Assembly: GCA_041984235.1 (NCBI GenBank)
Contig: JBHIYN010000001.1
Span: 164,985-228,984 of the forward strand
Length of the DNA: 64,000 bases
Direction: 5' to 3'
DNA from: Gammaproteobacteria bacterium
GTDB taxonomy: Bacteria; Pseudomonadota; Gammaproteobacteria; Ga0077536
Below are positions 26,115 through 54,377 of this stretch, one piece after another. The position numbers and the translations under genes are program-made. Each line of letters begins with the position of its first letter. The first letter of the stretch is position 1. Below the pieces are notes generated by a model that was not told where the DNA came from, did not search any database, and was given only the letters and a program-made list of their open reading frames with translations.

Positions 26115-28442
26115 TCAGCCCGGCAGGCCGAGCACGCCCTTGGCGATGATGTTGCGCTGGATCTCGTTCGAGCCGCCGTAGATCGTCGCCGGCCGTGCGT
26201 TGTAGAACTGGCTGAGGACGTCCACCGTCTCGTGACCGAAGGCGAGCGCGCCGGGCGTCGCGCCGTCGGCGGCGGCCGCCTCGACCATCAGCTCGGACAG
26301 CCGCGCGAAGGTCTCGGTGCCCCAGATCTTGAGCAGCGACACGTCCGGACCCAGCGTGTCGCCGCGGCGCACGATGTCGGCGAACACCTGGTAGGTCGAC
26401 TCCAGGTCCAGCACGTCGAGCTTGAGCCGCACGAGGCGATCGCGGAAGGCGCCGTCGTCGAGCATCCCGGCGCCGGCGGCGAGCGCTTCGAGGCGCATCA
26501 GGGCGTACTGCGACTGCTTGGGGCTGCCGATGAAGATACGCTCGAAACCGAGCAGGGCCTTGGCGATGGTCCAGCCCTGGTTGATCTCGCCGACCAGGCA
26601 ATCCGCCGGCACGCGCACGTCGTCGAGGAACACCTCGCAGAACTCCTCGTGTCCGGCGATGTTGCGAATCGGGCGTATGGTCACCCCCGGCTGGTCGAAG
26701 TCGATGAGGAAGAAGCTGATGCCGGCCTGCGGCTTGCCTTCCCTGGAAGTGCGCGCGAGGCAGAACATGTGGGTCGCGTCCTGCGCCAGCGTGGTCCAGG
26801 TCTTCTGCCCGTTGATCACGAACTCGTCGCCATCGGCAACGGCCTCGGTCTTGAGGCTGGCGAGGTCGGAGCCGGCATTCGGTTCCGAGTAGCCCTGGCA
26901 CCACACGGCGTCGCCGGACAGGATCTGCGGCAGGTATCTCGCGCGCTGCTCGGCGGTACCGTGGCGTATGAGCAGCGGGCCGACCATCTGGATACCCATG
27001 TCGGGTGCGCGGCCGACGCCCCAGCGCTCCTGCTCCTCGATGAAGATGAGCAGCTTCGACGGCGACAGGCCCATGCCGCCATGCTCCGCCGGCCACGCCG
27101 GCGCCACCCAGCCCTTCGCCGAGAGCTTCAGGTACCACGGCTTGATGTCGGACCAGCGCAGGCGTTCCGAGGGATAGCGCAGCTCGGGCGGGTACTCGGA
27201 CTCGAAGAAGCGGCGCACCAGCATGCGAAAGGTCTCGTCGTCGATGCTGTCCCACTCGCCGTTGGCGGGCTCCGCGGTAGTGGTGAGCGTAGCCGGCGCG
27301 CGCTCGCCGCTCTCCGCGCCGAGCAGGCTGGCCAGGCGGGTCGCGTGGAAGCTCGCGTTGCCGTGGCGTGCGGCCAGCACCAGCGCGCGGTTGAGATACA
27401 GGCCGACGTCGCACTCGTCGGTGTAACCGATGCCGCCGTGCAGCTGCACGGCCTGGCGGGTCAGCAGCAGCGCCGTCTCGCTGGCGCGGTACTTGGCGCG
27501 GCTCGCGGCCCGCGCGCGCGCCTCGGCCGAGACCGCGGCGTCGTAGTCGGCGAGTGCCTCGTCGAGCACTGCGCCGGCGATGGTCTTGTGGATGAAGAGG
27601 TCGACCGCGCGGTGCTGCAGGGCCTGGAAGCTGCCGATCGGGCGGCCGAACTGCTCGCGGGTCTTGAGGTAGTCCAGGGTGATGTCGAAGATGCGCTCGC
27701 TCAGGCCGACCAGGTAGGCGGCGCTGCCGAGGCGTGCCAGCGCGCGTGCGTCGGCCAGCGCGTCGGCCGCGGCGTCGCCGCGCGCGAGCAGGGCGCCGGC
27801 GTCGACCGCGGCCTGCTCCAGGATCAGCGTGGCGCTGCTGGTGCCGTCACTCTGGGTGCGGGATTCGACGCGCACGCGCGCGTGGTCGGTGGCGACCAGG
27901 AACAGGGCGGGAGCCGTGTCGAGCACGGCTTCGACCACGACGTGGTCCAGCGCCTCGGCCAGGGCCACGCCGCGCACTCGCCCGTCGAGCAGGTAGCCGT
28001 CGCGCTGCGGCGTTGCCAGCAGGGGCGGAATGCCGCCGGCGAACTCACCGGCCTCGGCCAGCGCGGCGCCGATCAGGGTCTCGCCGTGAAAGAGGTCACG
28101 CAGCAGCACGCCGTCGCGGTCCAGCGCCGCGAGCAGGCCGCAGGCGGCGACACCGCATTCGAGCATCGGCTCGGGCGCTACCACGCGGCCCAGCTCGCGG
28201 CACACCGCGCCCGCCGCCTGGGCGCCGAGATCGAGCCCGCCGGCGGTCTCCGGTGCGAGGATGCCGGCCCAGCCGAGCTCGCACATCTCGCGCCACGCAC
28301 CGCGGTCGAACGGCGGCGCCGCGCCGCGCAGTGCACGCAGGCGTTCCACGCCGAGACTGCGTGCGCAGAAGTCGGCGGCGCTGTCACGCAGCATGTCGAT
28401 GGTCTCGAGGTCCACCGCGGGGCGGCGCAGGGCTTCGCTCAT
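26115..28442 (-). CDS. fused two-domain acyl-CoA dehydrogenase (776 aa)
   Basis: Two consecutive ACAD-like units are present. The second has canonical 'QGYSEPNAGSDLASL' and 'TIYGGSNEIQRNIIAK'. The start is at 'MSEALRRPAV' with a GGAGAC SD. The remainder of track ORF 26115..29822 is antisense to the hydratase gene. Confidence 0.75.
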   Translation of the reverse strand: MSEALRRPAVDLETIDMLRDSAADFCARSLGVERLRALRGAAPPFDRGAWREMCELGWAGILAPETAGGLDLGAQAAGAVCRELGRVVAPEPMLECGVAACGLLAALDRDGVLLRDLFHGETLIGAALAEAGEFAGGIPPLLATPQRDGYLLDGRVRGVALAEALDHVVVEAVLDTAPALFLVATDHARVRVESRTQSDGTSSATLILEQAAVDAGALLARGDAAADALADARALARLGSAAYLVGLSERIFDITLDYLKTREQFGRPIGSFQALQHRAVDLFIHKTIAGAVLDEALADYDAAVSAEARARAASRAKYRASETALLLTRQAVQLHGGIGYTDECDVGLYLNRALVLAARHGNASFHATRLASLLGAESGERAPATLTTTAEPANGEWDSIDDETFRMLVRRFFESEYPPELRYPSERLRWSDIKPWYLKLSAKGWVAPAWPAEHGGMGLSPSKLLIFIEEQERWGVGRAPDMGIQMVGPLLIRHGTAEQRARYLPQILSGDAVWCQGYSEPNAGSDLASLKTEAVADGDEFVINGQKTWTTLAQDATHMFCLARTSREGKPQAGISFFLIDFDQPGVTIRPIRNIAGHEEFCEVFLDDVRVPADCLVGEINQGWTIAKALLGFERIFIGSPKQSQYALMRLEALAAGAGMLDDGAFRDRLVRLKLDVLDLESTYQVFADIVRRGDTLGPDVSLLKIWGTETFARLSELMVEAAAADGATPGALAFGHETVDVLSQFYNARPATIYGGSNEIQRNIIAKGVLGLPG

Positions 28443-28574
28443 GGTCGGGTCTCCGAAGTCGCGGTAAGGCGTGCGATGATAAATCGTTATCGAGCCGCTG
28501 TCGGGCAGCGCCCGCCGCCGGCCGGTCCGATCAACGGCGTGGCACGGCGTCGCGCCGCACAGCGAGGGGAGACG

Positions 28575-29351
28575 ATGAAGCCTGAACTGGTCAAGCTCGA
28601 CGTGGTCGAGGATTTCGTGGCGGTGGTGACGCTGGACAACCCGCCGGTCAACGCGCACAGCCAGCGCCTGCTCGAAGAGGTGGCCTGGACCTTCGACACC
28701 GTCAGCGACCGCGAGGACATCCGCGCCGCGGTGCTGACCGGTGCCGGCAAGTGCTTCTGTGCCGGCGCCGACATCAAGGAACGCGTCGGGCGCACGCCGC
28801 AGCCGGGCGACCACTGGCAGAACAGTCGCCGCGCCCGCGAGGCTTACCACAGCATCATGGAGTGCCGTAAGCCGGTCATCGCCGCGATCAACGGCCCGGC
28901 GCTGGGCGGCGGGCTGGCGCTCGCGGCCTCCTGCGACATCCTGCTGGCGAGCGAGGACGGCTGCCTGGGTCTGCCCGAGATCAACGTCGGCCTGCTGGGC
29001 GGCGGCCGCCACAGCCAGCGCCTGTTCGGGCATTCGCGCCTGCGCCGCATGATGCTCACCGGCATGCGCCTGTTCGGACCCGAGCTGTACCGCCTGGGCG
29101 TGGTCGAGGCGTGCACCGCGCCGGACGCGCTGATGGACGAGGCGCTCGCGATCGCCCGCGAGATCGCGGCCAAGAGCCCCGTCGCAAGCGTGCTCGCCAA
29201 GCACGCGCTCAACCAGATCGAGGAGATGACGCTGCGCGACGGCTACCGCTTCGAGCAGACCATGACCGGCGAGCTCGGCAAGACCGAGGACTCGAAGGAA
29301 GCGATGCGCGCGTTCGTGGAGAAACGCACGCCGCAATTCAAGGGCCGCTGA
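28575..29351 (+). CDS. enoyl-CoA hydratase/isomerase
   Basis: 'VLTGAGKCFCAGADIKE' and 'AAINGPALGGGLALAASCDILLAS' are present. A GAGGGGA SD precedes the ATG. It is divergent from the fused ACAD. Confidence 0.85.
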   Translation: MKPELVKLDVVEDFVAVVTLDNPPVNAHSQRLLEEVAWTFDTVSDREDIRAAVLTGAGKCFCAGADIKERVGRTPQPGDHWQNSRRAREAYHSIMECRKPVIAAINGPALGGGLALAASCDILLASEDGCLGLPEINVGLLGGGRHSQRLFGHSRLRRMMLTGMRLFGPELYRLGVVEACTAPDALMDEALAIAREIAAKSPVASVLAKHALNQIEEMTLRDGYRFEQTMTGELGKTEDSKEAMRAFVEKRTPQFKGR

Positions 29352-29381
29352 GCAGGCCGTACCCCTCCGGGAGAACCGTCC

Positions 29382-29909
29382 ATGAGTATCGAATTCGTCG
29401 ACCCACGTGGCGAGACACGGCGCGCCGCGCAAGCCTATGAACATGTCCTCGACGTCACCGTGCCGGCGACCATCGGCCTGCTGGCCAACGGCTTTCCCGA
29501 CTCGGTCGCGTTCCTGGACGCGGTCGAGGTCGCTCTGGGCGAGGCGCTGCCGCAGGCGAGCTTCCGCCGCTACGCCAAGCCGGGCGCCTCGGCGCCGGCC
29601 GACAGCGCGCTGGTCGCCCGCATCGCGGCCGAGTGCGATGCGCTGGTGACCGCCTACGGGCACTGAGGCAGCTGCACATCCGGCACCGTGCGTGACGGCA
29701 TTGCACTGGCCCGCGAGGGGCGCCCGGCGGTGGCCTTCGTGACCACCAAGTTCGAGCCGCAGGGCGACTTCGTCGCCCGCGCCGAGGGCATGCCCGACGT
29801 GCCTCGCGTGATCGTGCCGCACCCGGTGGCCGGCATCGGTGCTGCCGCCATGGCCGCGCTGGCGCGCGACATCGCCGTCACCGTGGTCGAACGGCTGCGC
29901 GCCGGATGA
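29382..29909 (+). CDS. UGSC-motif selenoprotein; TGA at 29664..29666 read as selenocysteine
   Basis: Track ORFs 29382..29666 and 29688..29909 are in the same frame, separated only by one TGA. Read-through gives '...AYGH-U-GSC-TSGTVRDGIALAREG...'. There is a GGAGAA SD before 29382. The gene is co-oriented with selA and selB downstream, and tRNA-Sec is present in the window. Confidence 0.75.
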
Positions 29910-30973
29910 GCGCGCTGCTCAGCGCGGCCGATGCCGATGCCGCACTCGAGCGACTGCACGCCCTGCGCTGCACGGACGGCCTGCCGGTGGTCATTCCGAC
30001 CCCCGAGCGCGTCTCGCGGCTGGTGCTCGCGAGCGGGCTGGACGCCGACATCGAGCTCGGCGTGATGGGGCCGGGTTATGGCGTCGCCACCGTGGAGAAG
30101 GTTGCCGCCTGCGCGGTCATGGCCGGCTGCCTGCCCGACCACATGCCGGTGGTCGCGGCCGCCGTGCGCGCGGTGTGCCGGCCCGAGTTCGATCTCACCG
30201 AGATGCAGTGCACCACGCATGCCATCGCACCGCTGGTCGTGGTCAACGGTCCGGCGCGCGCGGCCGGCGGCTTCGCCTCCGGCTTCGGGCTGATGGGGCC
30301 CGGCCACCGCGCCAACGCCAGCGTCGGCCGCGCCCTGCGCCTGGCCATGATCAACATCGGCGGCGCGCGCCCGGGCGAATCCGACATGGCCATCCACGGC
30401 TCGCCGGCCAAGTTCTCGCTGTGCTTTGCCGAGGACGAGGCGGCCTCGCCCTTCGCGCCGCTGCACACGACCTTCGGCTACGCGCCCGGCGACAGCGCGG
30501 TCATGGTGCTCGGCGTCGAGGGCCCGCACTCGGTGCTGTTCAGCGGCGATGCCGGCGATAGCGCGTCGGCCGAGGCCCTGCTCGACACCCTGGCCGCGGT
30601 GATCGCCAATCGCGGCAGCAACAACTCCTACCTCGGCGGCCGCGCCGCGGTCGCGCTGGTGCTCAATCCCGAGCATGCCGCGATCCTGGCCGGGGCCGGT
30701 CATGGCCGCGAGTCCGTGCAGCAGGAGCTCGCCGCGCGCGCGGTGACCCCGCGCGAAATCCTGCAGCGCCTCAATCCGAAGATGCTGCAGGGCGAGGAAG
30801 CCCTGATCCCGGCAGTGCGCGATCCGGCCCGGGTGCACCTGATGGTGGCCGGCGCGCCCGGCCTGTACTCGGTCGTGATGCCGTCGTGGTGTGCCGGGCC
30901 ACACGGCAACGTCGCGGTGCACGCGGCGGTCGAGCTGGACCCGTACTGCGAATTACCCACGGCCTCCCGCTGA
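29906..30973 (+). CDS. conserved hypothetical protein (355 aa), translationally coupled to the UGSC selenoprotein
   Basis: A long intact ORF whose start overlaps the upstream stop by 4 nt (ATGA). Family not recognised from sequence; it is not SelD-like. Confidence 0.55.
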   Translation: MSALLSAADADAALERLHALRCTDGLPVVIPTPERVSRLVLASGLDADIELGVMGPGYGVATVEKVAACAVMAGCLPDHMPVVAAAVRAVCRPEFDLTEMQCTTHAIAPLVVVNGPARAAGGFASGFGLMGPGHRANASVGRALRLAMINIGGARPGESDMAIHGSPAKFSLCFAEDEAASPFAPLHTTFGYAPGDSAVMVLGVEGPHSVLFSGDAGDSASAEALLDTLAAVIANRGSNNSYLGGRAAVALVLNPEHAAILAGAGHGRESVQQELAARAVTPREILQRLNPKMLQGEEALIPAVRDPARVHLMVAGAPGLYSVVMPSWCAGPHGNVAVHAAVELDPYCELPTASR

Positions 30974-31040
30974 GCGCCGCGCCGCCGCGATCTGCTAGGC
31001 TGTGACGCTGCCGGGTGCAACGGCCCGGGGGGAGAATGTC

Positions 31041-32129
31041 ATGTCCGATCTGTATGCCGACGCCGCGGTCACGGTACGCGAGGATCTCGCCGCCGCGCAC
31101 GCGCGCAGCCTGGCCAGTTTTAGCGCGCCGGGAACCTGGTTCGACGGCGCGACCCGCGCCGGCCTGGCCGGCGAGGCGCGGCAGGCCCGCGCAGAGGCCG
31201 GCCTGCAGCCGGGCACGCCGCCGACGGAGGGGGGCGGCGCGGTGCCCGCGGCCGCCGCGCGCGTGGTCCGGCGGATTGCCGCCGACCCGACCGACCTCGA
31301 TCGCAGCCTGTTCGACGATGCCTGCGCCGAGGGTCTGAGCGAGGAAGAGTACGTCGAATGCGTCGGCATTGCCGCGCGCATCAGTAACCTCGACATGTTC
31401 GCGCGCGGCCTCGGCGTCGCACCGCGGCCGCTGCCGCCGGTCAGCGCCGGCGAGCCGAGCCGACGGCGTCCGGCCGCGGCGGTCGCGGAGGGCGCCTGGG
31501 TGGCGACGATCCCCAACGGTGAGGCCGGCGGCGCCGAGGGTGCCGCGCTCTACGGCGGGCAGTGGGCGGCCAACATCCTGCGCGCGCTCAGCCTGGTGCC
31601 CGCCGAAGCCGCGGACCTGATTGCCTTGGGCGACGTGCAGTACGTCTCGGTGGCCAACTTCATGGACTTCGGCTACTCGCACGACCCGGCCATCTCGCGG
31701 CAGCAGGTCGAACTGGTGGCGGCGCGCATCTCCGCGCTCAACGCCTGCTTCTACTGAACCTCCTGGCATGTGCAGCTGCTCCGTGCGAGCGGCCAGTCGG
31801 GACAGAAGACTTACGAACTGAAAGGGGTTACCGATCGTGCGCTCGCTATCGGCGTGGACGACGAGGACGTCTTGCTGGCCTTCGCCGACGCGGTCTTCGG
31901 CGGGCCGCAGGCTGCGCTCGACGCGGCGCGCAGCGCGCTGCGCCATCGCCTGGGTGACGGCGGCCTGGTCGAGGCCGCGATCACCGCGGCGAATTTCAGC
32001 CTGGTCGATCGCGTCGCCAACAGCATCGGTATTCCGCTCGATGGCATGGCCATCGAGCAGACGGCCGATTTTCGCGAACCGCTCGGCATCAACCGCTTCC
32101 CTTCGGCGCGCAATACGCTCGGCGGCTGA
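31041..32129 (+). CDS. AhpD/carboxymuconolactone-decarboxylase-like selenoprotein (CxxUxxxH); TGA at 31755..31757 read as selenocysteine
   Basis: Track ORFs 31002..31757 and 31770..32129 share a frame and are separated by one TGA. Read-through gives 'NA-C-F-Y-U-T-S-W-H', matching the AhpD core CxxCxxxH motif with Sec in place of the second Cys. A 'ggggggagaa' SD precedes the ATG at 31041. selA lies immediately downstream. Confidence 0.75.
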
Positions 32130-32159
32130 ACCGCCGCCGGGCACACGGACGGCGGCGCC

Positions 32160-33584
32160 GTGAGCGACGGCGCCGAGGCCAACGCGGCGCTGCGGGCGGT
32201 GCCGTCGATCGACGAGTTGCTGCGCGGTGCCGATGCCGCCCGCCTGGTCGATGCCTGGGGCCGCGAAGCGGTCGTCGCGGCCTTGCGCGAAGCGGCCGAC
32301 GCGGCGCGCGCGGCACTCGCCGGGGGCGCTGCGGCGGCGCGTGCGCAGGCGTCGGCGGAGGCCCTGGTCGCGGACGCGGCCGCCCGCCTCGCGGCGCTGA
32401 TGGCGCCGGCGCTGAAGCCGGTGTTCAACCTCACCGGCACGGTGCTGCACACCAATCTCGGACGCGCGCCGCTGCCGGCCGAGGCGATCGCGGCGATGAG
32501 CGCGGCGGCCGGTGCCAGCAACCTCGAGTACGACCTCTCGACGGGACGCCGCGGCGATCGCGATGCGCTGGTCGAGGACTGGATCTGCCGCCTCACCGGG
32601 GCCGAGGCGGCGACCGTGGTCAACAACAACGCCGCCGCCGTGCTGCTGCTGCTGAACACGCTCGCGCGGCGCCGCGAGGTGCCCGTGTCGCGCGGCGAGC
32701 TGGTCGAGATCGGCGGCGCCTTCCGTATTCCCGACGTCATGGCGCGGGCCGGCAGCAAGCTGGTCGAGGTCGGTACGACCAACCGTACCCATGCGCGTGA
32801 TTTCGAGGACGCGCTCGGTGCGCGCAGCGCGCTGCTCATGAAGGTGCATACCAGTAACTACGTGGTCGAGGGTTTCACCGCCGCGGTCGCCGAGCCCGAG
32901 CTGGCGCGCATCGCGCATGCAGCCGGTGTGCCGTTCGTGGTCGATCTCGGCAGTGGCACGCTGACCGACCTGTCGCGCTTCGGCCTGCCGCGCGAGCAGA
33001 CCGTCGCCGAGACCCTGGCCAATGGCGCCGACCTGGTGACCTTCAGCGGTGACAAGCTGCTCGGCGGCCCGCAGTGCGGCATCATCGCGGGGCGCGCCGA
33101 TCTCGTGCGCCGCATCAAGAAGAACCCGATGAAGCGCGCCCTGCGCGTGGACAAGATCACGCTCGCCGCGCTGGGCGCGGTGCTGCGCCTGTACGGCGAT
33201 CCCGCACGCCTGCCCGAACGCCTGCCGGCGCTGCGCCTGCTGACCCGCGACGAGGCCGACATCCGCGCCGCTGCCGAGCGGCTGCTGCAGCCGCTGCGTG
33301 CGGCACTGGGCGCTGCCGCGACGGTCGACGTCGTCGCCTGTCGCAGCCAGATCGGCAGCGGCGCCCTGCCGGTCGACCTGTTGCCGAGCGCCGCGCTGCG
33401 CATCACGCCGCCGGGCCGGCGCGGGCGGGCACCGGAGCGGCTGGCCGCACGCCTGCGCGCGCTGCCGCTGCCGGTCATCGGTCGCATCGCGGACGGCGCC
33501 GTGCTGCTCGACCTGCGCTGCCTGGACGACGAGGCCGGATTCGTCGACCAGCTGGCGCTGCTGGGCGAGGGTGAAGCGCCGTGA
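32160..33584 (+). CDS. selA: L-seryl-tRNA(Sec) selenium transferase
   Basis: The PLP-lysine region '[20 protein letters not shown]', '[15 protein letters not shown]' and the N-terminal 'VPSIDELLR' are present. The start is GTG. Confidence 0.9.
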
Positions 33585-35494
33585 TCGTCGCCACCGCCGG
33601 CCACGTCGATCATGGCAAGACGCTGCTGGTGCGGGCGCTCACCGGTGTGGACACCGACCGCCTGCCGGAGGAGAAGCAGCGCGGACTGACCATAGAGCTC
33701 GGCTTCGCCTACCACGATCTCGGCGACGGCGAGATCACCGGCTTCATCGACGTGCCCGGCCACGAGCGCTTCATTCGTACCATGATCGCCGGTGCCAGCG
33801 GCATCGACGTGGTGCTGTTCATCGTCGCCGCGGACGACGGCCCGATGCCGCAGACCGCGGAGCATCTCGCGATCCTCGACCTGCTGGGGGTGCAGCGCGG
33901 GGTGGTCGCATTGACCAAGGTCGACCGGGTCGACGACGCGCGCCTGCAGGCGGTTACCGTCGAGTGCCGCCGCCTGTTCGAACCGACGCCGCTGGCGATG
34001 GCTCCGATCGTACCCGTTTCGGCGCTCGAAGGCCGCGGCATCGATCTGCTGCGCGAGGTGCTGCTGAAGCTCTCCGCCGAGGTGCCGCCGCGTGTGGTCG
34101 CAGGCAATTTCCGCCTCGCCATCGATCGCAGCTTCCTGCTCAAGGGCGCCGGACGGGTGGTGACCGGCACCGTCTTCTCCGGGCAGGTCGGCGTCGGCGA
34201 GGCGGTGTGTCACGTCCCGGGCGGCGAGAGCGTGCGGGTGCGCGGCATCCACGCCCAGAACCACGAGGCGGAGTCGGCCGGCGCCGGCCTGCGCACCGCG
34301 CTCAACCTGGCCGGCAGCGGGCTGCGCGACGGCGATCTGCATCGCGGTGACTGGATCGTCGCTGACGGCGCCGCGTTCTCCACCCGCCGGCTCGACGCCA
34401 TGCTGCGCGTGCTGCCGGGGGAGAGCCGGGCGCTGCGCAATCGCACCCCGGTGCACGTGCACGTCGGCGCCGCCGACGTCACCGGCCGCGTCGTGACCTT
34501 CGACGGCAAGGCCATAGAGCCCGGCGCGGAGGCGCCGGTGCAGTTGCTGCTCGACCGCGAGCTGCACGCGGTCCACGGCGACCGCATCGTGCTGCGCGAC
34601 CAGTCGGCGCGGCGTACCCTGGGCGGCGGCACGGTCATCGATCCGGTGCCCGACGTCCGCGGCCGCTCGCGCAGCGAGCGCGTACGTTACCGTGAAGCGA
34701 TGTCGTGTGACGACCCGGCCGCGGCCCTGGACGCGGCCCTGGCGGCGCTCCCCGACGGCATCGAGCTCGATCGCTTCAGTCGCTGCTGGAATCTTACCGC
34801 CGCGGAGGCCGAGGCACTGTTCGCGCGCAGCGCGATGGTGCGCGTCGACCGCGGCGACGTGCGGCTCGGTTTCGAGCCGGCGCGCTGGCAGGCCCTGCAG
34901 GACATGCTGCCGCCGGCGGTGGCGGCGGTTCATGCCGAGGCGCCCGACCGCCCCGGTGCCAGCGAGGCCGAGATCAACCGCAAGCTGCCCGAGCGCCTGC
35001 GTCCCGCACTGCTCGCGCTGCTCGTCGAACAGCTCGTCGCGGCCGGTACCCTGGAACGCAACGGCGCCGTGGTGCGCGTGCCCGGTCACGCTGTGCAGCG
35101 CTCGCCGGCCGACGAGAAGCTGTGGCGGCGGGTCGGGCCGATCCTCGAAAAGGCCGCGTTGAAGGCGCCGGTGGTGCATGACCTGCACGAGGCGCTGCAC
35201 ATCGACCTCAAGCTGCTGGAGGGTTTCCTCGGGCGCTCTGCGCAGCAGGGTTACCTGGTGCGCGTGAGCGCCAAGCGTTACTTCCTGCCGGACAGCATGC
35301 GCACTTTCGAGACCATCGTGCTGGAGCTTGCGCGCACCCAGCCGGATGGCGTATTCACCGTTGCCGATTTTCGTAACCGCGCCGGCATCGGCCGCAATGC
35401 GGTGGTCGAGATCCTGGAATACTTCGACCGCGTCGGCCTGACCCGGCGCCACGGCCAGGTGCGCCGGGTCGTCGGCACGCCCACCCATCTCTGA
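33581..35494 (+). CDS. selB: selenocysteine-specific translation elongation factor
   Basis: The GTPase G1 motif '[16 protein letters not shown]', 'DVPGHERFI' and the long C-terminal winged-helix extension are present. It overlaps selA by 4 nt (GTGA). Confidence 0.9.
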
Positions 35495-35508
35495 ACGGAG
35501 CCAATCAC

Positions 35509-36747
35509 ATGAGTACGAGTATCAGCGTGGACACCGCCGCCGGACGTGTCGAGGGGCATTGCGATACGCGCTTCGCCGCCGTCGCCGACGCCTTCGTCGC
35601 CAATTTCGAACAACGCGACGAAGTCGGCGCGAGCTGCGCGATCACGCTCGAGGGTGAGACCGTGGTCGACCTGTGGGGCGGACGTATCACGCGTGGCGGC
35701 GAGGCCTGGCAGCGCGACACGCTGTGCACCGTGTTCTCCTCGACCAAGGGTGCGATGGCGCTCTGCGCGCACATGCTCGCCGATCGCGGCAAGCTCGATC
35801 TCGATGCCCTGGTGACCGATTACTGGCCCGAGTTCGGGACCGGCGGCAAGGAAGGCGCGCGGGTGAAGATGACGCTGGACCACAGCGTCGGCGTGCCTCA
35901 CGTGCGCGACGCGGTGCCGCCCGGCGGCTTCTACGATTACGACGCCATGGTTGCGCGGATTGCCGCCGAGCCGGCTTTCTGGGAGCCCGGCACGCGCGGT
36001 GGCTACCACGCCATCAGCATGGCCTGGACGGTCGGCGAGCTGGTGCACCGCGCGGCCGGCCAGCGTCTCGGTGCGTTCTTCGACGCGCAGGTGGCGAAGC
36101 CGCTCGGCATCGACTTCTGGATCGGGGCGCCGGCGACGGTCGAGGATCGTATCTCGCCGATGATCCCGGCCGAGCCCGACGAGCCCTGGCTCGCGACCCG
36201 CTTCATCCAGGCCGCGCTCGGCGCCGAGCAGAACCCGACGCAGCTCTTCATGCGCGACTTCCTGCTGGTCGACGCCAACGACCCGGCCTGTCACCAGGCC
36301 GAGATCGGCTCGGCCAACGGCGTCACCAACGCGCGCGGCCTGGCCGGCATGTACGCGCCGCTGGCCAACGGCGGGGCGCTCGGCGGCACGCACCTGGTCG
36401 GCGCGGACACGCTGGCACGCATGGGCCGGGTCAGCATGGCTTCGCACGACGACGCCACGCTGCTGATCCCGACCCGCTTCGCGCTCGGCTACATGAAGAG
36501 CACGGACAATCGCCGCGTGCCGAACACGGTCAACGCCAGCCTGCTCGCCGGCGAGTCAGCCTTCGGCCACGTCGGCGCCGGCGGCTCGCTCGGGCTCGCC
36601 GACCCGGAATGCGCGATGAGCTTCGGTTACGCCATGAACCGCATGGGCACCGGGCTGCTGATGAACGAGCGCGGGCAGTCGCTGCTCGACGCCGCTTACC
36701 GTGCGCTCGGCTATCGCTCTGACGCCAGCGGGGCGTGGCGCACCTGA
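35509..36747 (+). CDS. serine hydrolase, class C beta-lactamase/esterase family
   Basis: The S-x-x-K motif 'FSSTKG' and a fold-typical sequence are present. It starts 14 nt after selB. Confidence 0.75.
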   Translation: MSTSISVDTAAGRVEGHCDTRFAAVADAFVANFEQRDEVGASCAITLEGETVVDLWGGRITRGGEAWQRDTLCTVFSSTKGAMALCAHMLADRGKLDLDALVTDYWPEFGTGGKEGARVKMTLDHSVGVPHVRDAVPPGGFYDYDAMVARIAAEPAFWEPGTRGGYHAISMAWTVGELVHRAAGQRLGAFFDAQVAKPLGIDFWIGAPATVEDRISPMIPAEPDEPWLATRFIQAALGAEQNPTQLFMRDFLLVDANDPACHQAEIGSANGVTNARGLAGMYAPLANGGALGGTHLVGADTLARMGRVSMASHDDATLLIPTRFALGYMKSTDNRRVPNTVNASLLAGESAFGHVGAGGSLGLADPECAMSFGYAMNRMGTGLLMNERGQSLLDAAYRALGYRSDASGAWRT

Positions 36748-36829
36748 GCAGGACTAGCGCACGTGGGTCAGAATTAAATTCTGACCCCTTCCGAACCCCG
36801 TCCCCTGCGACCCTGATAGCATAGGCGGC

Positions 36830-36925
36830 GGAAGAGCATCGCCACCCGGTGGGGCGCCCGGTCTTCAAAACCGGTGAGACGGCCGCAGGGTCGTCTGGCA
36901 GGTTCGACTCCTGCCTCTTTCGCCA
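36830..36925 (+). tRNA. selC: tRNA-Sec (anticodon UCA)
   Basis: The 96-nt sequence is 'GGAAGAGC...GGTCTTCAAAACC...GCAGGTTCGACTCCTGC...CTCTTTCGCCA'. The anticodon loop is 'CUUCAAA' with anticodon UCA. It has a long variable arm and an extended acceptor, and the T-arm is identical to E. coli selC from memory. Confidence 0.85.
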
Positions 36926-36986
36926 CTTCATCCGCCGGCGGGGCCAGGCTCGGCCCCGCCGGCGATTCTCCGGGGGGAGGAGCAAC

Positions 36987-37475
36987 ATGCAGTTCCATCA
37001 CATGGCCGTGTTCGTCAGCGACATGGCGGAGGCGGTGCGCCTGTGGCGTGACGTGCTCGGTTTCAAGGTCGCGGTCGAAACCACCATTCCGGATGGCCCC
37101 GAACCGGGACCCAGGACCTACATGTACCCGGCGCTGCTCGACGACATCTTCAAAGTCGAGGGCGCAAAATCAAAAATGGTCCTGCTGATGTCCGACGAGG
37201 GCGCGCTGATTGAGCTGCAGGAATGCGAGAACCCCGCCATCCAGCGCACGCCGAAGGAGAACCTGCGCTACGGCCACACCGGCTTCCACGAGCTCGGCCT
37301 GCTGGTGGACGATATCGACGGTTGGTTCGAGAAGGTGCGCGCGGCCGGTTACGAGACCCAGACCGACTACGTCTGGACCTGCGCCAGCATCGGCCGCTCG
37401 TTCCTGTTCTACGATGCCGACGGCAACATGATCCAGCTCTGGGAGCACACCGCGGAGCCGACCTGGGAGACCTGA
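36987..37475 (+). CDS. VOC-family (glyoxalase/bleomycin-resistance/dioxygenase fold) protein
   Basis: 'MQFHHMAVFVSDMAEAVRLWRDVLGF' is typical of the VOC fold. A 'ggggggaggag' SD is present. Confidence 0.7.
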   Translation: MQFHHMAVFVSDMAEAVRLWRDVLGFKVAVETTIPDGPEPGPRTYMYPALLDDIFKVEGAKSKMVLLMSDEGALIELQECENPAIQRTPKENLRYGHTGFHELGLLVDDIDGWFEKVRAAGYETQTDYVWTCASIGRSFLFYDADGNMIQLWEHTAEPTWET

Positions 37476-53807: not shown

Positions 53808-54377
53808 ATGACCGATCTCCAATCCCTGGAAGCCCGCATCGATCGCATCGAGTCACGCGCCGCCATCGGCGAGTTGGTGACGGCTTACGCCATCGCCTGC
53901 GACGAGCACGACATGCCGCGCCTGACCGACCTGTTTACCACCGACGCCTGCTTCGATTCGCCCAGCGGGGCGATGGTGGCCAACGGCCGTGAGGCCATCG
54001 CCGCGATGTTCGTCGAGTTGTTCAAGGTGCGTGGCCCGGCCTTCCACTGGACCCACGATCGCGTCGTCACCTTCGACGACCGCGATCCCGATCGGGCCAC
54101 CGGACTGGTGCTGAGCCATGCCGAGACCTGCCCCAACGACACCGTCAGTCTCGCCGCCATGCGTTACCACGACGACTACCGGCGCGAGCACGGGCGCTGG
54201 CGTTTCGCCCGGCGCGTGATCAGCTTTCTCTACTACGTACCGGTGACCGAGTTCGCCGGCGCGCTGAAGGACCGCAACCGGCTCAGCATCGGCGGCCAGC
54301 GGCTGCCGGCCGACTACCCCGAGACGCTCGCAGCGTGGCAGGCCTTCCACCGCGAGCACGTCGCCACGGGGACCTGA
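53808..54377 (+). CDS. SnoaL/NTF2-like fold protein
   Basis: A 189-aa protein from 'MTDLQSLEARIDRIESRAAIGELVTAYAIACDEHD', a typical SnoaL-like N-terminus. Confidence 0.6.
   Translation: MTDLQSLEARIDRIESRAAIGELVTAYAIACDEHDMPRLTDLFTTDACFDSPSGAMVANGREAIAAMFVELFKVRGPAFHWTHDRVVTFDDRDPDRATGLVLSHAETCPNDTVSLAAMRYHDDYRREHGRWRFARRVISFLYYVPVTEFAGALKDRNRLSIGGQRLPADYPETLAAWQAFHREHVATGT

Follow-up and report, generated by a model that had tools for sequence, protein, structure and literature searches.

Selenoproteins that carry a CxxU motif in an AhpD or carboxymuconolactone decarboxylase (CMD) core, U being selenocysteine (Sec), have long been described, as an earlier, sequence-only reading of the locus considered here had noted. 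Among them are the AhpD-like 1 (COG2128/TIGR01926) and AhpD-like 2/CMD-domain (PF02627) proteins of the Sargasso Sea and Global Ocean Sampling (GOS) selenoproteomes, which are single-domain proteins of about 180 to 200 residues with a bacterial Sec insertion sequence (SECIS) downstream of the UGA. A new CxxU family from the Sargasso Sea data was published as "hypothetical protein 1," with its predicted SECIS displayed (Zhang, Fomenko and Gladyshev 2005; PMC1088965), and a 2026 review equates that family with NF041238, AhpD_rel_CFYUT (PMC13188914). We analyzed a window of 64,000 nucleotides from a gammaproteobacterium (assembly GCA_041984235.1, contig JBHIYN010000001.1, positions 164,985 to 228,984 of the forward strand) in which two adjacent open reading frames (ORFs), directly upstream of selA and selB, are separated by a single in-frame UGA. 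We hold with high confidence that they form one gene (31041..32129; Table 1) for a 362-residue selenoprotein of NF041238, and the apparent stop at 31755-31757 is almost certainly a Sec codon inside one redox protein of that length.

Compared with NF041238 and "hypothetical protein 1," the product is alike in length (about 357 residues in the family), in its C-F-Y-U-T motif, and in the placement of Sec at the CxxU position, and no substantive difference was found; the location of the gene directly 5' of selA-selB is uncommon for the family. It has in common with the AhpD-like 1 and AhpD-like 2 selenoproteins the CxxU in an AhpD/CMD core and a SECIS-type hairpin downstream, but it possesses an additional N-terminal lobe of about 200 residues. 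The selenoprotein family to which the gene belongs is already curated, as an NCBIfam equivalog, and published; the gene is an unremarkable member of it and is not novel. The value of the result is mainly one of annotation, with one 362-residue selenoprotein taking the place of two hypothetical proteins; nothing here alters existing knowledge of selenoproteins, and the comparative data add modest detail on the family in the form of a SECIS consensus, at least 518 loci, a fold prediction, and the lack of a conserved partner gene.

The sequence-only reading had joined ORFs 31002..31757 and 31770..32129 on the grounds that they share a frame, that the TGA between them falls within N-A-C-F-Y-U-T-S-W-H, that the gene ends 30 nt before selA, and that the second ORF offers only a GTG as a start and has no Shine-Dalgarno (SD) sequence. 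These particulars all held on inspection. Both ORFs are listed and their starts, 31002 and 31770, are congruent modulo 3; translation of 31041..32129 meets a lone internal stop, the TGA at 31755-31757, and the surrounding sequence, ...RISALNACFY-TGA-TSWHVQLLR..., contains the motif as described. The gene's own stop is also TGA (32127-32129), and the gap from there to the selA GTG at 32160 is 30 nt. His243 is directly followed by a Val codon, the GTG at 31770, which is preceded by CCUCCUGGCAU, with no SD.

Profile searches were run with the read-through product in which U (the stop) was replaced by Cys. NF041238 (alkylhydroperoxidase-related (seleno)protein) matched with 359.5 bits (cutoff, 175; E = 2.1e-107) in a single alignment that crosses the TGA and pairs residues 12-354 with profile positions 1-356 of 357; since a curated full-length profile aligns in this manner, the split ORF pair is beyond chance. 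The motif from which the family takes its name is present as A-C-F-Y-U-T-S-W-H, and the same motif occurs in more than 70 of 80 homologous loci. Assignment to the AhpD/CMD superfamily, also proposed in the sequence-only reading, was borne out by Pfam CMD PF02627 (37.2 bits; cutoff, 23), which covers residues 212-256, and by TIGR00778 ahpD_dom (32 bits; cutoff, 27.8), both of which extend across the TGA.

GTDB genomes, one per species, were scanned with patterns and a tblastn query that ended before the UGA codon. This gave at least 518 related loci, nearly all of them belonging to uncultured Alpha- and Gammaproteobacteria, Binatia, Myxococcota, and Acidobacteriota. All counts over 80 loci refer to the 80 best of these, whose sequences were retrieved; the closest relatives of the source organism are metagenome-assembled genomes (MAGs) of Gammaproteobacteria. 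TGA follows the CFY codons in 80 of 80 loci, with TAA, TAG, or a Cys codon in none, and the frame remains open for some 122 to 130 codons past the TGA in almost all complete loci. The C-terminal part was detected by tblastn in 77 of the 80, in frame and always exactly one codon after the N-terminal part, at 36 to 64% identity. The read-through protein was compared with 51 database homologues: 48 are truncated by gene callers exactly at ...C-x-Y, and the other 3 (P0003, P0022, and P0029) are full length across the junction with Cys at the U position, their motifs being NECFYCTASH, NKCAFCAPIH, and NECAFCTPIH. The C-terminal fragments called by gene callers are of arbitrary lengths (86 to 161 residues). 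In the public protein collection that was searched, the window gene is represented by fragments of 238 and 119 residues and nearly all relatives are split likewise; an exact-sequence look-up of the 362-residue read-through protein in that collection returned nothing. The view that the 119-residue ORF is not an independent gene, taken before any homologue had been consulted, is supported by this pattern: Cys homologues span the junction as single proteins, and the C-terminal part, far from being a free-standing conserved protein, occurs in frame behind the N-terminal part and in called pieces of no fixed size.

The interval 31758..31810, named in advance as the place for a SECIS, contains a hairpin that lies 20 nt 3' of the UGA, its stem formed by 31775-31781 with 31787-31793 and its loop starting 27 nt after the U of UGA. 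It was examined by counting pairs in 79 distinct homologous sequences aligned without gaps, with slid and shuffled controls. In the 7-bp stem, 82.5% of cells were paired, compared with 35 to 58% when the partner was slid by 1 to 3 columns, and compensatory pairs were present at 21-39 (GC/AU), 22-38 (UG/CG/GC/AU), and 24-36 (GC/AU/CG), the last of these being replaced by a bulged U in a large subfamily. Columns 25-29, 31, and 33 (CUCCG.G.G) are invariant. Synonymous sites are similarly frozen: the stem Leu is encoded by CTC in all 79 sequences, and the loop Arg by CGT in 69 and by CGG in 10, in loci spanning 38 to 72% GC, with CGT supplying 22 of 190 Arg codons in the window genome. The consensus over this range of GC contents is family specific (CUCCGUGNGAG). 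In a distant Cys homologue (L086), the same Leu-Arg is coded by CTT CGC and the hairpin motif is lost. Within the window, another selenoprotein gene, of the UGSC family, has a hairpin with the identical loop, CGUGC.

The distance between UGA and hairpin falls in the range used by bacterial SECIS search tools. Like the SECIS of E. coli fdhF, the element is a hairpin shortly 3' of the UGA whose apical loop is G/U-containing; it differs in its family-specific sequence and in that, in part of the family, the bulged U is on the 3' side of the stem and not on the 5' side. Hairpins were likewise reported for the new selenoprotein families of the Sargasso Sea, and one was displayed for hypothetical protein 1 (PMC1088965). 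On the strength of covariation, frozen synonymous sites, and this analogy, we regard the hairpin at 31775-31793 as a putative bacterial SECIS that would bind SelB by the known bacterial mechanism. As a separate observation, the Cys homologue P0003 (L085, 5001..6041) has TGT in place of the Sec codon and retains the family hairpin GGCCCUCCGUGGGAGCGGCC downstream of it, probably as a SECIS relic left by a recent replacement of Sec by Cys.

In M. tuberculosis AhpD, the second Cys of the CxxC motif is the nucleophile, activated through a Glu/His relay, and the first Cys resolves. The window protein has the corresponding motif, with Sec as the second Cys; the spacing of E224 and C236 is that of Glu118/Cys130/Cys133/His137 in the mycobacterial enzyme. 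E224 and C236 are nearly invariant in the family and Y238 is nearly invariant or invariant. A phmmer search against PDB sequences aligned residues 195-331 with 6k40 (D. radiodurans AhpD; E = 1e-6), 3c1l, and 2oyo, placing CfyCtswH over CVYCAVSH (6k40, LNRCVYCAVSH), CYYCLTAH (3c1l, INHCYYCLTAH), and CLYCAVSH (2oyo); these alignments, together with those to P0003, P0022, and P0029, agree with the initial proposal that U occupies the second Cys position of CxxCxxxH. The protein is not an orthologue of M. tuberculosis AhpD (TIGR00777; PDB 1gu9/1knc), being twice as long and having Sec for the second Cys, and no AhpC or lipoamide-system partner gene lies near it.

A structure was modeled for the Cys homologue P0003, which is 45 to 47% identical to the window protein. 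The model is two lobed, with a Sestrin-like double AhpD fold, and shows the all-helical AhpD arrangement. By extension, the window product is predicted to be two lobed with a double AhpD fold, the C-terminal lobe of which would bear E224-x11-C236-x-x-U239-x3-H243. The likeness to human Sestrin-2 (PDB 5cuf) concerns the fold of the predicted homologue model and does not imply functional equivalence; identity is 11%, and the full-length Foldseek superposition was poor (root mean square deviation, 17 to 20 Å). We suggest that the hairpin, through its CGUGC loop, would recruit SelB-GTP-Sec-tRNA(Sec) to the ribosome at the UGA, with SelA, SelB, and tRNA(Sec) supplied by the genes directly downstream, and that in the finished protein, as with the second Cys of M. 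tuberculosis AhpD, U239 would make the nucleophilic attack and C236 would resolve the intermediate to a selenenylsulfide. Such a cycle would make the product a thiol/selenol-dependent hydroperoxide or disulfide reductase, and more generally a probable selenol/thiol oxidoreductase.

The Sec machinery occupies the region immediately downstream, beginning with selA, which PF03841 and TIGR00474 identify in the position given by the sequence-only reading (Table 1). In the window, a gene for acyl-CoA dehydrogenase (- strand) is followed in turn by those for enoyl-CoA hydratase and the UGSC selenoprotein, then by orf355, AhpD_rel, selA, selB, a beta-lactamase-like ORF, and tRNA-Sec. AhpD_rel lies near selA in only 4 of the 80 loci, and neighbors that recur among the 80 are a second, Cys-type AhpD-like gene (14 loci), a short-chain dehydrogenase/reductase (SDR) gene (11), and an enoyl-CoA hydratase gene (10). 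In L001 and L002, the closest relatives (61% identity), the order is AhpD_rel-selA-selB, and in L001 at least, a hydratase gene lies immediately upstream; L087 has hydratase-UGSC-orf355-selA-selB and no AhpD_rel; and in L090, selB-selA is divergent from UGSC-orf355. The interval from hydratase to selA (28575..32160 in the window) contains AhpD_rel without UGSC-orf355 in L001 and L002, UGSC-orf355 without AhpD_rel in L087, and the two together in the window, and it looks like a variable slot, not a property of the family. Because so few loci are near selA and the contents of the slot differ among L001, L002, and L087, the adjacency to selA is lineage specific and not a family trait. A scan of the + strand from 28400 to 37200 found no promoter-like or terminator-like sites, which is weak evidence.

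Table 1. AhpD-related gene, its elements, and the adjacent Sec machinery (positions within the 64,000-nt window)
Feature	Position	Strand	Basis or remarks
Shine-Dalgarno-like sequence, GGGGGGAGA (possible)	31027..31035	+	5 nt before ATG 31041; read from the sequence
AhpD-related (seleno)protein gene, complete	31041..32129	+	362 codons including Sec239; translation and NF041238 match
Active-site motif E224-x11-C236-x-x-U239-x-x-x-H243	31710..31769	+	AhpD core motif, Sec at second Cys
In-frame UGA, predicted to be read as Sec (U239)	31755..31757	+	TGA at homologous codon in 80/80 loci; Cys (TGT/TGC) in P0003, P0022, P0029
Extended lower stem (predicted)	31761..31802	+	MFE (minimum free energy) -20.4 kcal/mol; predicted in the window only, not conserved among homologues
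Putative SECIS, upper hairpin, conserved	31775..31793	+	7-bp stem GCUGCUC/GAGCGGC, apical loop CGUGC 31782-31786; MFE fold and comparison
selA, L-seryl-tRNA(Sec) selenium transferase	32160..33584	+	PF03841, 512.6 bits; TIGR00474, 575.7 bits
selB, Sec-specific elongation factor	33581..35494	+	Overlaps selA stop; TIGR00475, 410.7 bits; SelB winged-helix domains
Beta-lactamase-family ORF	35509..36747	+	Between selB and tRNA-Sec; same ORF after selB in relative L087
tRNA-Sec (selC), anticodon UCA	36830..36925	+	ARAGORN; Rfam RF01852, 62.6 bits (threshold, 47)

The arrangement could in principle be that of two independent genes, or of a gene broken by a nonsense codon, with the 238-residue N-terminal protein real and the 119-residue ORF separate or dead; automated gene callers make this split in all copies of the contigs of this genome, and most database homologues are split alike. 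Such an origin does not account for a TGA at the same codon in all 80 independent species-level loci or for a downstream frame conserved at the protein level in 77 of them, the Cys homologues are single proteins, the C-terminal fragments have the lengths expected of chance internal start codons, and the stop falls within the CMD domain and ahead of the catalytic His. We therefore give two genes or a broken gene next to no probability, and consider that explanation effectively refuted. UGA is the leakiest of the stop codons, and decoding other than as Sec, by near-cognate insertion of Trp or Cys or through a reassigned code, would also give one continuous protein. Nothing specific favors this, and a reassigned or generally leaky UGA is at odds with the use of TGA as a true stop both by the same gene and by the UGSC gene (29907-29909); dedicated Sec machinery next door, a conserved hairpin with frozen synonymous sites after the UGA, and a position occupied by a redox Cys in homologues all point to Sec, and we consider any other decoding extremely improbable.

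A further proposal is compatible with Sec insertion and concerns expression of the operon: the AhpD_rel gene might also serve as a sensor for selAB, failed decoding of its UGA when Sec-tRNA or selenium is scarce uncoupling translation and altering selA-selB expression by polarity. The 30-nt gap to selA and the scan of the + strand for promoter-like and terminator-like sites would suit such a role, as would the placing of different selenoprotein genes in the hydratase-selA slot by relatives (L001, L002, L087, and the window). The scan is weak evidence, however, the family is seldom near selA, the UGSC module is divergent from selAB in L090, and clustering with sel genes could be mere cotransfer or coretention, so that a sensor function seems unlikely to us. 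It is also doubtful, to a similar degree, that the slot in this gammaproteobacterial lineage gathers selenoprotein genes whose UGA decoding couples selA-selB expression to current Sec-insertion capacity. E. coli selAB has a SECIS-like 5' element; if the coupling through the slot were true, it would be an operon-level feedback distinct from that element.

Several results weigh against the reading that we prefer, that of a single Sec-containing, AhpD-related redox protein. The cutoffs of true AhpD (TIGR00777; 16.7 bits versus 191.95) and of peroxid_rel (TIGR01926; 44.8 bits versus 81.8) were not reached, and judged by these profiles the protein is kin to both and a member of neither. Reviews grade the function of the AhpD_rel_CFYUT family as unknown (PMC13188914). 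There is no universal partner gene across the 80 loci, such as an AhpC-type peroxiredoxin, and a crude motif search of the 64-kb window saw no selD. Only three sequences cover the C-terminal lobe in the structural model, which is that of a homologue. The folding energy of the hairpin was no better than that of shuffled sequence in a 70% GC context (z = -0.79 and +0.22), and the case for a SECIS was made on comparative evidence for that reason; RNAalifold alone retained only three invariant top pairs, and no SECIS-type Rfam family matched the hairpin at the gathering threshold or at E values up to 10. Set against these, Sec insertion at 31755-31757 is what we infer from the reading frame, the family, the correspondence of Sec and Cys, the hairpin, and the neighboring Sec machinery.

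Other observations concern the family at large. Tandem Sec-containing paralogues are adjacent in L058 (6730 and 7966) and L072 (5213 and 6357), and three copies of the family (L001, L015, and L060) occur in MAG CAXXLL01. In one subfamily (P0022, P0024, P0029, P0030, P0042, P0048, and P0051), the N-terminal lobe contains an inserted segment with a conserved C-x-L-C...LSP...G-x-H (alignment A1, columns ~50-80) that might bind a metal or form a second redox site; this segment is absent from the window protein and its nearest relatives.

Elsewhere in the window, a scan based on GC content at third codon positions (GC3) found further TGA codons with coding-like sequence on both sides in frame at 54375 (+), 46179 (-), and 22092 (-), which most likely reflect neighboring genes in a common frame; the scan was not exhaustive, its filters having missed the AhpD_rel UGA itself. 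The UGSC gene upstream of AhpD_rel (29382..29909, + strand; UGA 29664-29666, ...AYGH-U-G-S-C...) is split by gene callers into ORFs of 94 and 73 residues. PF24696 matches its N-terminal half, a precomputed Pfam record labels both called halves UGSC, and the protein scored 114.4 bits against NF041046, slightly below the cutoff of 125; its hairpin at 29680-29698 has the apical loop CGUGC, as in the putative AhpD_rel SECIS. Directly after it, orf355 encodes a very conserved 355-residue protein with no family or fold match, and the UGSC-orf355 pair is a more promising lead than the AhpD_rel gene.
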